From NCBI RefSeq assembly GCF_050920415.1, contig NZ_CP169309.1: a DNA stretch of 64,000 nucleotides; one strand, written 5' to 3'. The first letter of the stretch is position 1; the number at the start of each line of letters is the position of its first letter. Both the position numbers and the translations under genes were made by a program. This DNA comes from Escherichia coli (GTDB taxonomy: Bacteria > Pseudomonadota > Gammaproteobacteria > Enterobacterales > Enterobacteriaceae). Under the pieces are notes generated by a model, which saw only the letters and a program-made list of their open reading frames with translations, did not search any database and had not been told where the DNA came from. This document shows positions 19,657-23,556 of this stretch, in pieces.

Positions 19657-19823
19657 TTCGTAGACAAACATATTCACGTTTTTGAATTTGGACGTGCTAT
19701 TGTGACGGTTAGACGGGTGTTTACATATTGTGAACACTCGTGTGATCAACTACTATAGAAAAATAAAACCGAAGGAACGGGTAGTCCAGGCTTAGTCATT
19801 CAGGCGCTGATAAGGAAGTTAAA

Positions 19824-20135
19824 ATGCACATCATTTCTAAAGCGCCATTTGAAGAGTCTGCGCGTAAATATCCTAACGACGCTCTGGCTCTACACTCATT
19901 GTATCGGGTTATTAAGGAAACGGATTTTTCTACGCCAGAAGAAATGCGAACGGCGTTTCCCAACCTCGACAATTTTAAATATCGCAATAAATGGTACGTT
20001 CTGGATGTAGGCGGGAACAATCTTAGGGTTATTGCCTACATAAACTTTGTTAATAAGCGGTTCTTTGTGAAGCACATAACGAATCATGCCGAGTATGACA
20101 AACTGACACGTTACTACAGAGAGAACAAAGAATGA
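19824..20135 (+). CDS. HigB-family type II toxin (RelE/ParE-superfamily mRNA interferase), accessory gene
   Basis: 103-aa ORF; FPNLDNFKY...VGGNNLRVIAY...HITNHAEYD pattern resembles HigB as I recall it; AAGGAAG Shine-Dalgarno; toxin-first order; 4-bp ATGA overlap with the downstream antitoxin. Confidence 0.75.
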   Translation: MHIISKAPFEESARKYPNDALALHSLYRVIKETDFSTPEEMRTAFPNLDNFKYRNKWYVLDVGGNNLRVIAYINFVNKRFFVKHITNHAEYDKLTRYYRENKE

Positions 20136-20551
20136 CTGCTAATGCTGCACGCGCTGTTAAAGCAACAAGAGAACTGGTCAATGCAGTCCCCTTTCTGGGA
20201 GGCAGTGACTCAGAAGATGATTATCGTGAAGCACTGGAACTGGTCGAATATTTGATTGAAGAAGATGACACCAATCCACTTATCGACTTTCTGGCGAGCC
20301 GTATTGCAGAATATGAAAACAACCACGAAAAGTTTGCAGAGTTCGATAAAGCCGTTGCAGCAATGCCGATTGGCGTGGCGTTACTTCGCACGCTGATTGA
20401 TCAACATAATCTGACCTATGCGGATTTGAAGAACGAAATCGGCTCTAAATCCCTGGTCAGTCAGATTTTGTCTGGACAAAGATCCCTGACGATATCCCAC
20501 ATTAAGGCACTTTCAGCCCGATTTGGCGTTAAGCCGGAATGGTTTCTTTGA
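20132..20551 (+). CDS. HigA-family antitoxin with C-terminal XRE-type helix-turn-helix
   Basis: 139-aa ORF; C-terminal SKSLVSQILSGQRSLTISHIKALSARFGV HTH; start overlaps toxin stop. Confidence 0.75.
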   Translation: MTANAARAVKATRELVNAVPFLGGSDSEDDYREALELVEYLIEEDDTNPLIDFLASRIAEYENNHEKFAEFDKAVAAMPIGVALLRTLIDQHNLTYADLKNEIGSKSLVSQILSGQRSLTISHIKALSARFGVKPEWFL

Positions 20552-20578
20552 TTTTTGACAGATGCCAAACGCCAGATT

Positions 20579-20658
20579 GCCCGATGTGCTGCGCTTATCG
20601 GGCCTACATGTCGCACGAACTATGTAGGCCGGATAAGGCGTTCACGCCGCATCCGGCA
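20579..20658. repeat. BIME: two REP elements in opposite orientation
   Basis: GCCCGATGTGCTGCGCTTATCGGGCCTACA and TGTAGGCCGGATAAGGCGTTCACGCCGCATCCGGCA are typical REP palindromes. Confidence 0.8.
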
Positions 20659-20665
20659 CGTTTGC

Positions 20666-23556
<2,891 letters not shown>

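Follow-up and report, generated by a model that had tools for sequence, protein, structure and literature searches.

The analysed window, a stretch of 64,000 nucleotides, is a piece of the Escherichia coli chromosome in which the genes hycE, hycF, hycG, hycH and hycI are followed by a small cassette and then by ascB and ascF on the opposite strand. The cassette is accessory (Table 1). It is lacking in K-12, whose hycI-ascB spacer aligned with the window for 2-3 nt beyond the hycI stop codon and resumed at about position 20560. REP-type palindromic elements, which are common to K-12, lie 3′ of the cassette (window 20560-20680), and a sub-threshold Rfam match of the naRNA4/REP-like type was recorded at 20627-20671 (39.6 bits, with a gathering score of 59.5).

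The cassette consists of a toxin gene and an antitoxin gene on the same strand, with the toxin gene first and the two overlapping by ATGA, which is the organisation of a higBA type II toxin-antitoxin operon. The toxin belongs to the RelE-like Pfam family PF09907 (82 bits against a cut-off of 27, E 3.8e-23) and matched the K-12 HigB structure 5IFG_A over residues 1-100 (E 7e-22). The antitoxin matched K-12 HigA (5IFG_B) over residues 9-138 with about 50% identity (E 3.1e-35). Like the K-12-type HigA (YgjM), to which it is homologous over its full length, it has an N-terminal helical toxin-binding domain and a C-terminal Xre-type helix-turn-helix (HTH) domain, placed by Pfam (HTH_3) at residues 85-138. 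Its recognition helix is SKSLVSQILSG. By these matches the two proteins are clear paralogues of HigB and HigA of K-12 (YgjN and YgjM). Neither protein matched any NCBIfam model. Structural work on K-12 HigA is represented by the PDB entries 5IFG, 6IRP, 6JQ4, 6KML and 6KMQ. In the literature searched we found nothing on this cassette or its operator, and no report pairing hycI with higB.

Table 1. Features of the higB-higA cassette and of the region upstream of higB, in window coordinates
Feature	Position	Strand	Description
Accessory higB-higA cassette	19659-20559 (~900 bp)	+	Between the hycI stop codon and the REP element before ascB
Palindrome extension ACGGGTGTTTACA / TGTGAACACTCGT	19713-19741		Allele-specific; 13-nt arms, 11/13 paired
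Candidate operator O1, core GTTTACA-TAT-TGTGAAC	19719-19735		17-bp palindrome; arms 6/7, 3-nt spacer
Putative -35 element TTGTGA	19728-19733	+	Inside the right arm of O1 (positions 10-15 of O1)
Putative -10 element TACTAT	19751-19756	+	Last 6 nt of the 21-nt linker after O1
Position of O2, decayed, AGAAAAATAAAACCGAA	19757-19773		Orthologues carry O2 here; O2-type sequence for this position: GTTCACATAATGTAAAC
Shine-Dalgarno sequence AAGGAAG	19812-19818	+	5 nt before the higB ATG; read from the sequence
higB-like toxin gene, 103 aa	19824-20135	+	Pfam HigB_toxin, PF09907
higA-like antitoxin gene, 139 aa	20132-20551	+	C-terminal HTH_3; its ATG overlaps the higB stop codon (ATGA)

Within the cassette, higB is preceded by an upstream region of 166 nt. 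This window-type upstream region was found in 343 of 5,426 complete E. coli genomes. A second promoter type, in which a gene for a hypothetical protein of 253 aa (no Pfam matches) is inserted between hycI and higB, was found in 748 genomes.

The hycI-ascB spacer is a hotspot of structural polymorphism and occurred in four forms (window 19657-20560; loci L026-L029 and L002). These were the window type, the arrangement hycI-hypothetical gene-higBA, an orphan higA from which higB had been deleted to its last codons, and a K-12 scar that joins the beginning of the hypothetical gene directly to its end. In the orphan form higA is intact, higB is cut to about 10-30 codons and the operator-promoter region is deleted (L028 1226-1645, L029 1530-1949 and L004 944-1360; also L009, L010 and L040). 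By a rough estimate based on ranks, at least 1,000 E. coli genomes carry it. Orphan higA genes were also found in Kluyvera georgiana, in Serratia sp. DD3 and in one viral contig. That only the antitoxin has been kept suggests that it has a role independent of the toxin, for example in anti-addiction or regulation.

The palindrome upstream of higB

The preliminary description had noted imperfect inverted repeats upstream of the toxin gene, around a possible -35/-10 pair. The inverted repeat was confirmed: GTGTTTAC (19717-19724) and GTGAACAC (19730-19737) are complementary at 7 of 8 positions and are separated by a 5-nt spacer. The further remark that GTGAACAC is itself near-palindromic is true (6/8), though nothing was found to support its significance. 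The palindrome alone was no better than chance (p about 0.15), its score being equalled in 14.5% of dinucleotide shuffles and in 18% of the 167-nt tiles of the window. Since the symmetry is not significant, the case for the site rests on conservation.

Orthologous cassettes outside E. coli were compared. A scan with the HigA protein, taking one genome per species, recovered cassettes whose HigA is 74-82% identical from Leclercia, Mangrovibacter (three species), Kluyvera, Citrobacter, Phytobacter, Yokenella, Pluralibacter and one further enterobacterium, and the genomic context was different in every case. Further cassettes, from a virulence plasmid of Klebsiella, a plasmid of Fukatsuia and several contigs of IMG/VR, were obtained by searching plasmids and viral contigs. 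In all 16 non-E. coli cassettes (HigA 66-82% identical) the sequence GTTYACA-TAT-TGTAAAC was found at the same place with unrelated flanks. The relatives share a fixed module, in which this site (O1) is followed by a 21-nt linker, made up of 15 variable nucleotides and a -10 hexamer, and immediately afterwards by a second site (O2), GTTYACA-TAA-TGTAAAC. The centres of O1 and O2 lie 38 bp apart in 16/16 of these loci, and a Shine-Dalgarno sequence and an ATG follow about 20 nt after O2. The same layout was recognised by eye in a 17th relative, L039.

Outside the fixed O1, -10 and O2 module the upstream regions of the relatives could not be aligned. Apart from a -10 hexamer, nothing upstream of higB except the palindrome was strongly conserved in this set of 11 genera, plasmids and viral contigs. 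An alignment of 18 sequences anchored on O1 gave an information content per column of 1.89 bits for O1 and 1.42 bits for the -10 hexamer, against 0.28 bits for the 25 nt of 5′ flank and 0.36 bits for the first 15 nt of the linker. The 17-mer starting at 19719 was the best conserved 17-mer of the 166-nt upstream region. Its mean best match in 17 related loci was 15.4/17, whereas shuffled controls reached 9.57 +/- 0.20 (maximum 10.1 of 300). A log-odds matrix was also trained exclusively on 26 non-E. coli sites. With this matrix the site at 19719 scored 28.0 bits, close to the training mean of 28.4, and the next best match in the 64 kb scored 5.6. It is conservation, and not symmetry, that raises the observation above chance.

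The core of O1 comprises two 7-bp half-sites with centres 10 bp apart, GTTTACA and, on the other strand, GTTCACA. Both variants occur in orthologues, so that the imperfection of the palindrome is itself the conserved Y of the half-site. The stretch 19719-19735 also conforms to the operator scaffold of the HigA family, GTT-NN-CA-N3-TG-NN-AAC, with its 7-nt arms, 3-nt spacer and invariant GTT..CA and TG..AAC. In the window the palindrome can be extended to arms of 13 nt, and in the common E. coli allele these pair at 12/13 positions. The extended arms were rejected as part of the family operator because the outer portions are unconserved outside E. coli. Two direct repeats, TATTGTGA (19698/19726) and ACATATT (19668/19723), were considered as extra half-sites. 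They were rejected since the major E. coli allele has both in altered form, the second promoter type lacks them and their scores fall below -7 bits.

Within E. coli, the two promoter types are 97.7% identical in their coding sequences and 53% identical upstream, outside O1, in an optimised global alignment. The stretch GTGTTTACATATTGTGAAC is identical at 19/19 positions between them, and the O1 core was the same in both sequences read of the second type. Six window-type alleles differed by about a dozen substitutions in 166 nt. These spared the O1 core and the -35 and -10 elements with one exception, allele EFF60, in which TGTGAAC is replaced by TATGAAC; the O1 core was thus unchanged in 5/6 of these promoter sequences, and TACTAT was invariant in all six.

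A further motif, TTGTGAA(A/T)TGCA, precedes O1 by 20-30 bp in several orthologues and also in paralogues of the pXJW type (L005, L030, L035, L032 and L045). Its counterpart in the window is TTGTGAC at 19700-19706 (within 19698-19706), which is unconserved in the second E. coli promoter type.

A -35/-10 pair could be placed as the preliminary description had supposed, with each hexamer matching the consensus at 4/6 positions (8/12 together) and a spacer of 17 nt. The pair fell below the threshold of the consensus promoter scan (9/12), which called no + strand promoter in 19657-19823. The putative hexamers were assigned from their register with the orthologues, which have TTGTAA at the place of the -35 element and TATAGT, TATCAT, TATAAT or TAGAGT at that of the -10 element. 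As in other members of the family, the upstream site overlaps the putative -35 element and the putative -10 element ends 21 nt after the site; the promoter itself is a predicted one. Transcription is predicted to start near 19763, which would give a leader of about 60 nt.

The proposed second operator

No second site was found directly after the -10 element of the window at a centre-to-centre distance of 38 bp. The scan of the upstream region with the matrix returned nothing but O1, the next best score being -7.4 bits. The second E. coli promoter type retains just ACACATAA from the left half of O2. Downstream of the decayed O2, GAAGGAAC (19771-19778) is a remnant of the ancestral ribosome-binding region, and between it and the new Shine-Dalgarno sequence AAGGAAG the E. 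coli leader contains about 45 nt more than those of the orthologues. Because O2 is missing in E. coli, the chromosomal module is best described as a single-operator derivative. Its regulation may have been weakened or rewired by the loss of O2 together with the longer leader.

O2 was present in all non-E. coli promoters associated with a Q-type recognition helix, with the exception of a viral contig, L038 (~1060-1090, HigA 75% identical). Here O1 is absent and only O2 is present, as GTTTACATAATGTGAAC following TATAGT, a mirror image of the situation in E. coli. In L039 (~905-1200), a 67%-identical relative, both operators are intact and higB appears to have been disrupted early by stop codons or a frameshift.

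The HigA recognition helix and the proposed regulation

Paralogous cassettes keep the scaffold GTT-NN-CA-N3-TG-NN-AAC, and base pairs 4-5 of their half-sites change together with one residue of the recognition helix. In the window clade, including the 67% relative, the helix SLVSQIL accompanies GTTYACA. The plasmid pXJW9B263 type has SLVSRIL with GTTTCCA or GTTGACA, and the K-12 type has SMVSRVL with GTTGCCA or GTTGACA. A plasmid of S. entomophila has SNVSNIL with GTTTTCA, and L047 has SMVSLIL with GTTTGCA. Thus YA goes with Q at the residue following VS (Gln111 in the HigA of the window), TT with N, TG with L, and any of TC, GC and GA with R. The spacing of the two sites in these paralogues is 38 bp, K-12 excepted (29 bp). 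The scaffold and the covariation can be seen at L003 2960-3030 (- strand) and at L032, L034 and L043-L047. Such covariation of site and protein over five specificity classes is what would be expected if HigA reads the palindrome. We take the variable residue to align with Gln33 in helix 3 of the phage 434 repressor, a base-contacting position, and consider this a lead.

The system most closely comparable is higBA of K-12 (ygjNM), which is likewise toxin-first, encodes the same protein families and has the scaffold of 7-nt arms and a 3-nt spacer. Upstream of K-12 higBA we read ATCC-GTTGCCA-ATC-TGGCAAC-GGAT, then TATCAT, then ATTGCCA-ATT-TGTCAAC. In both systems one site overlaps the -35 element, and in K-12 the -10 element TATCAT abuts the second site. 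The two differ in the half-site (GTTYACA, against GTTGCCA in K-12), in the helix (VSQ against VSR) and in chromosomal place, K-12 higBA lying between fadH and rlmG and the cassette of the window between hycI and ascB. They also differ in operator number. Unlike K-12, with two sites 29 bp apart, the window has the upstream site only, and its close relatives have two sites 38 bp apart. A 124-bp fragment carrying the K-12 higBA promoter was active only in the absence of the locus and was shut off by HigA supplied in trans; the inverted repeats there were indicated as putative binding sites, and Lon was required for induction, via loss of the antitoxin (PMC2814082).

The orthologous cassettes of the Klebsiella plasmid pCR-HvKP4-VIR and of Leclercia, Kluyvera, Mangrovibacter, Yokenella, Phytobacter, Citrobacter and Pluralibacter resemble that of the window in their HigA (74-82% identical), in an identical recognition helix, in an O1 of the same sequence class and in its distance to the -10 element. 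Unlike the window, they retain O2 over the start site, and a short leader of about 20 nt separates O2 from the ATG. No experimental characterisation of these cassettes was apparent in the literature searched. In HigB-HigA of Rts1 and Proteus vulgaris, a dimer of the HTH antitoxin binds two inverted repeats, O1 and O2, which overlap the -35 and -10 elements. The cassette would resemble that system in regulatory logic. The HigA of Rts1 is of another lineage, in which the protein is much smaller, and its operators are unrelated in sequence.

Several explanations other than an operator for HigA were weighed. An imperfect palindrome that arose by chance in AT-rich intergenic DNA, with no function, would agree with the symmetry statistics given above and with the empty promoter scan. 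It is, however, at odds with the match of the 17-mer across 17 related loci, with the standing of 19719 as the sole match to the foreign-site matrix in 64 kb, and with the identity of the site in two E. coli promoter types that are otherwise strongly diverged. On the strength of this conservation we regard chance as effectively refuted and extremely improbable. The palindrome could also act as RNA, as a hairpin in hyc read-through transcripts that serves as a 3′-end stabiliser or as an attenuator between hycI and higB. Folding of 19657-19775 gave a 13-bp hairpin on the palindrome (-33.8 kcal/mol, z = -3.85, with 0/200 shuffles folding as well) in which both mismatches are G.U on the + strand, and the common E. 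coli allele raises the stem to 12/13 Watson-Crick pairs. However, any operator palindrome folds once it is transcribed. The stem is not followed by a U-tract, the terminator scan was empty in 19657-19823, and Rfam returned no matches in the upstream region of higB. Among the orthologues the outer stem is unconserved, those with GTTCACA would have a C.A mismatch on the + strand, and the sites lie in unrelated upstream contexts without hycI. An RNA element in place of a DNA operator thus seems very unlikely.

Binding by a host factor other than HigA, such as CRP, is suggested by the three occurrences of TGTGA in 19698-19745 (at 19701, 19729 and 19741), which recall CRP half-sites. A CRP-type site is unsupported, since TGTGA-N6-TCACA was not seen by eye on either strand. 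The upstream copy of TATTGTGA is unconserved in the major E. coli allele. The conserved unit, GTTYACA-N3-TGTRAAC, accompanies the cassette on plasmids and in unrelated genera, and in the paralogues its half-site co-varies with the recognition helix of HigA, and we consider a host factor highly improbable. The main residual uncertainty is whether O1 is a relic, its autoregulation having become ineffective after the loss of O2 and the remodelling of the leader, in a cassette that is decaying. Such weakening would agree with the loss of O2, which affects both E. coli promoter types, and with the many deletion derivatives at the locus, including orphan higA and complete loss. Against it, O1 and the -35 and -10 elements have been maintained in two heavily diverged promoter lineages, and both genes of the operon remain intact, with 97-98% conservation. 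In many systems one operator over the -35 element is enough for repression, and the relative L038 also has one site only, in its case O2. On balance a relic is unlikely, though it deserves more weight than the preceding explanations.

We suggest instead that 19719-19735 is, with good probability, the operator of the cassette's own HigA, acting by autorepression and as the only operator in E. coli. A HigA dimer, alone or with HigB, would contact each GTTYACA half-site through one HTH recognition helix, the centres of the half-sites being one helical turn (10 bp) apart. Because the putative -35 element lies inside the right arm of O1, bound HigA would occlude this part of a sigma-70 promoter, block RNA polymerase and so autorepress higB-higA. 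When the labile antitoxin is lost the operon would be derepressed, as in K-12 higBA. In the relatives the second site, directly after the -10 element, would in addition cover the transcription start; with O2 decayed, control in E. coli would rest on O1 alone. Read-through transcripts from hycI may also allow the operon to be expressed independently of the higBA promoter.

The proposal in the preliminary description of an operator that overlaps the toxin-antitoxin promoter and is bound by the HTH antitoxin is supported by comparison, through conservation, overlap with the -35 element and covariation with the helix, together with the repression observed for the K-12 paralogue. As to where the operator lies, the palindrome does appear to sit over the promoter, but its core is GTTTACA-N3-TGTGAAC and not the outer GT...AC, and the second operator of the relatives is missing.

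The recognition helix is common to the chromosomal and orphan HigA of E. coli and to higBA of Klebsiella virulence and resistance plasmids. In K. pneumoniae pCR-HvKP4-VIR (L030, 593-1320), HigA is 77% identical, has an identical recognition helix and is preceded by a full promoter with O1 and O2. Cassettes of this type are found on about 500 plasmids, mostly from Klebsiella and including the hypervirulence plasmid. About 2,000 plasmids, again mostly from Klebsiella, encode a HigA-like protein with about 50% identity. In the one such locus read, on K. pneumoniae plasmid pKp_Goe_414-3 (L033, 300-1302), the HigA-like gene directly follows genes for a RelE/ParE toxin and a small HTH antitoxin, giving three genes without HigB. 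Cross-talk between Klebsiella plasmid higBA and the chromosomal or orphan HigA of E. coli is conceivable. More speculatively, the YgjM-type HigA family might use a readable code, in which two variable base pairs are set mainly by one residue (Q, R, N or L) and co-resident paralogues are thereby insulated. As a corollary, the chromosomal or orphan HigA of E. coli could cross-repress or neutralise Klebsiella plasmid higBA, in the manner of anti-addiction genes. We offer this tentatively and consider it rather doubtful at present.

The site is thus best placed as a HigA-family operator-promoter, which would extend a known mechanism to a new clade and overturns nothing. It provides a precise candidate operator (19719-19735) and promoter for a second, uncharacterised higBA module. 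Some 1,091 E. coli genomes, roughly one in five of those that are complete, carry this module, and a close version lies on hundreds of Klebsiella plasmids. The E. coli module would be a natural single-operator variant for studying the role of operator number in toxin-antitoxin autoregulation, and the covariation of half-site and helix suggests how related antitoxin repressors may avoid cross-talk.
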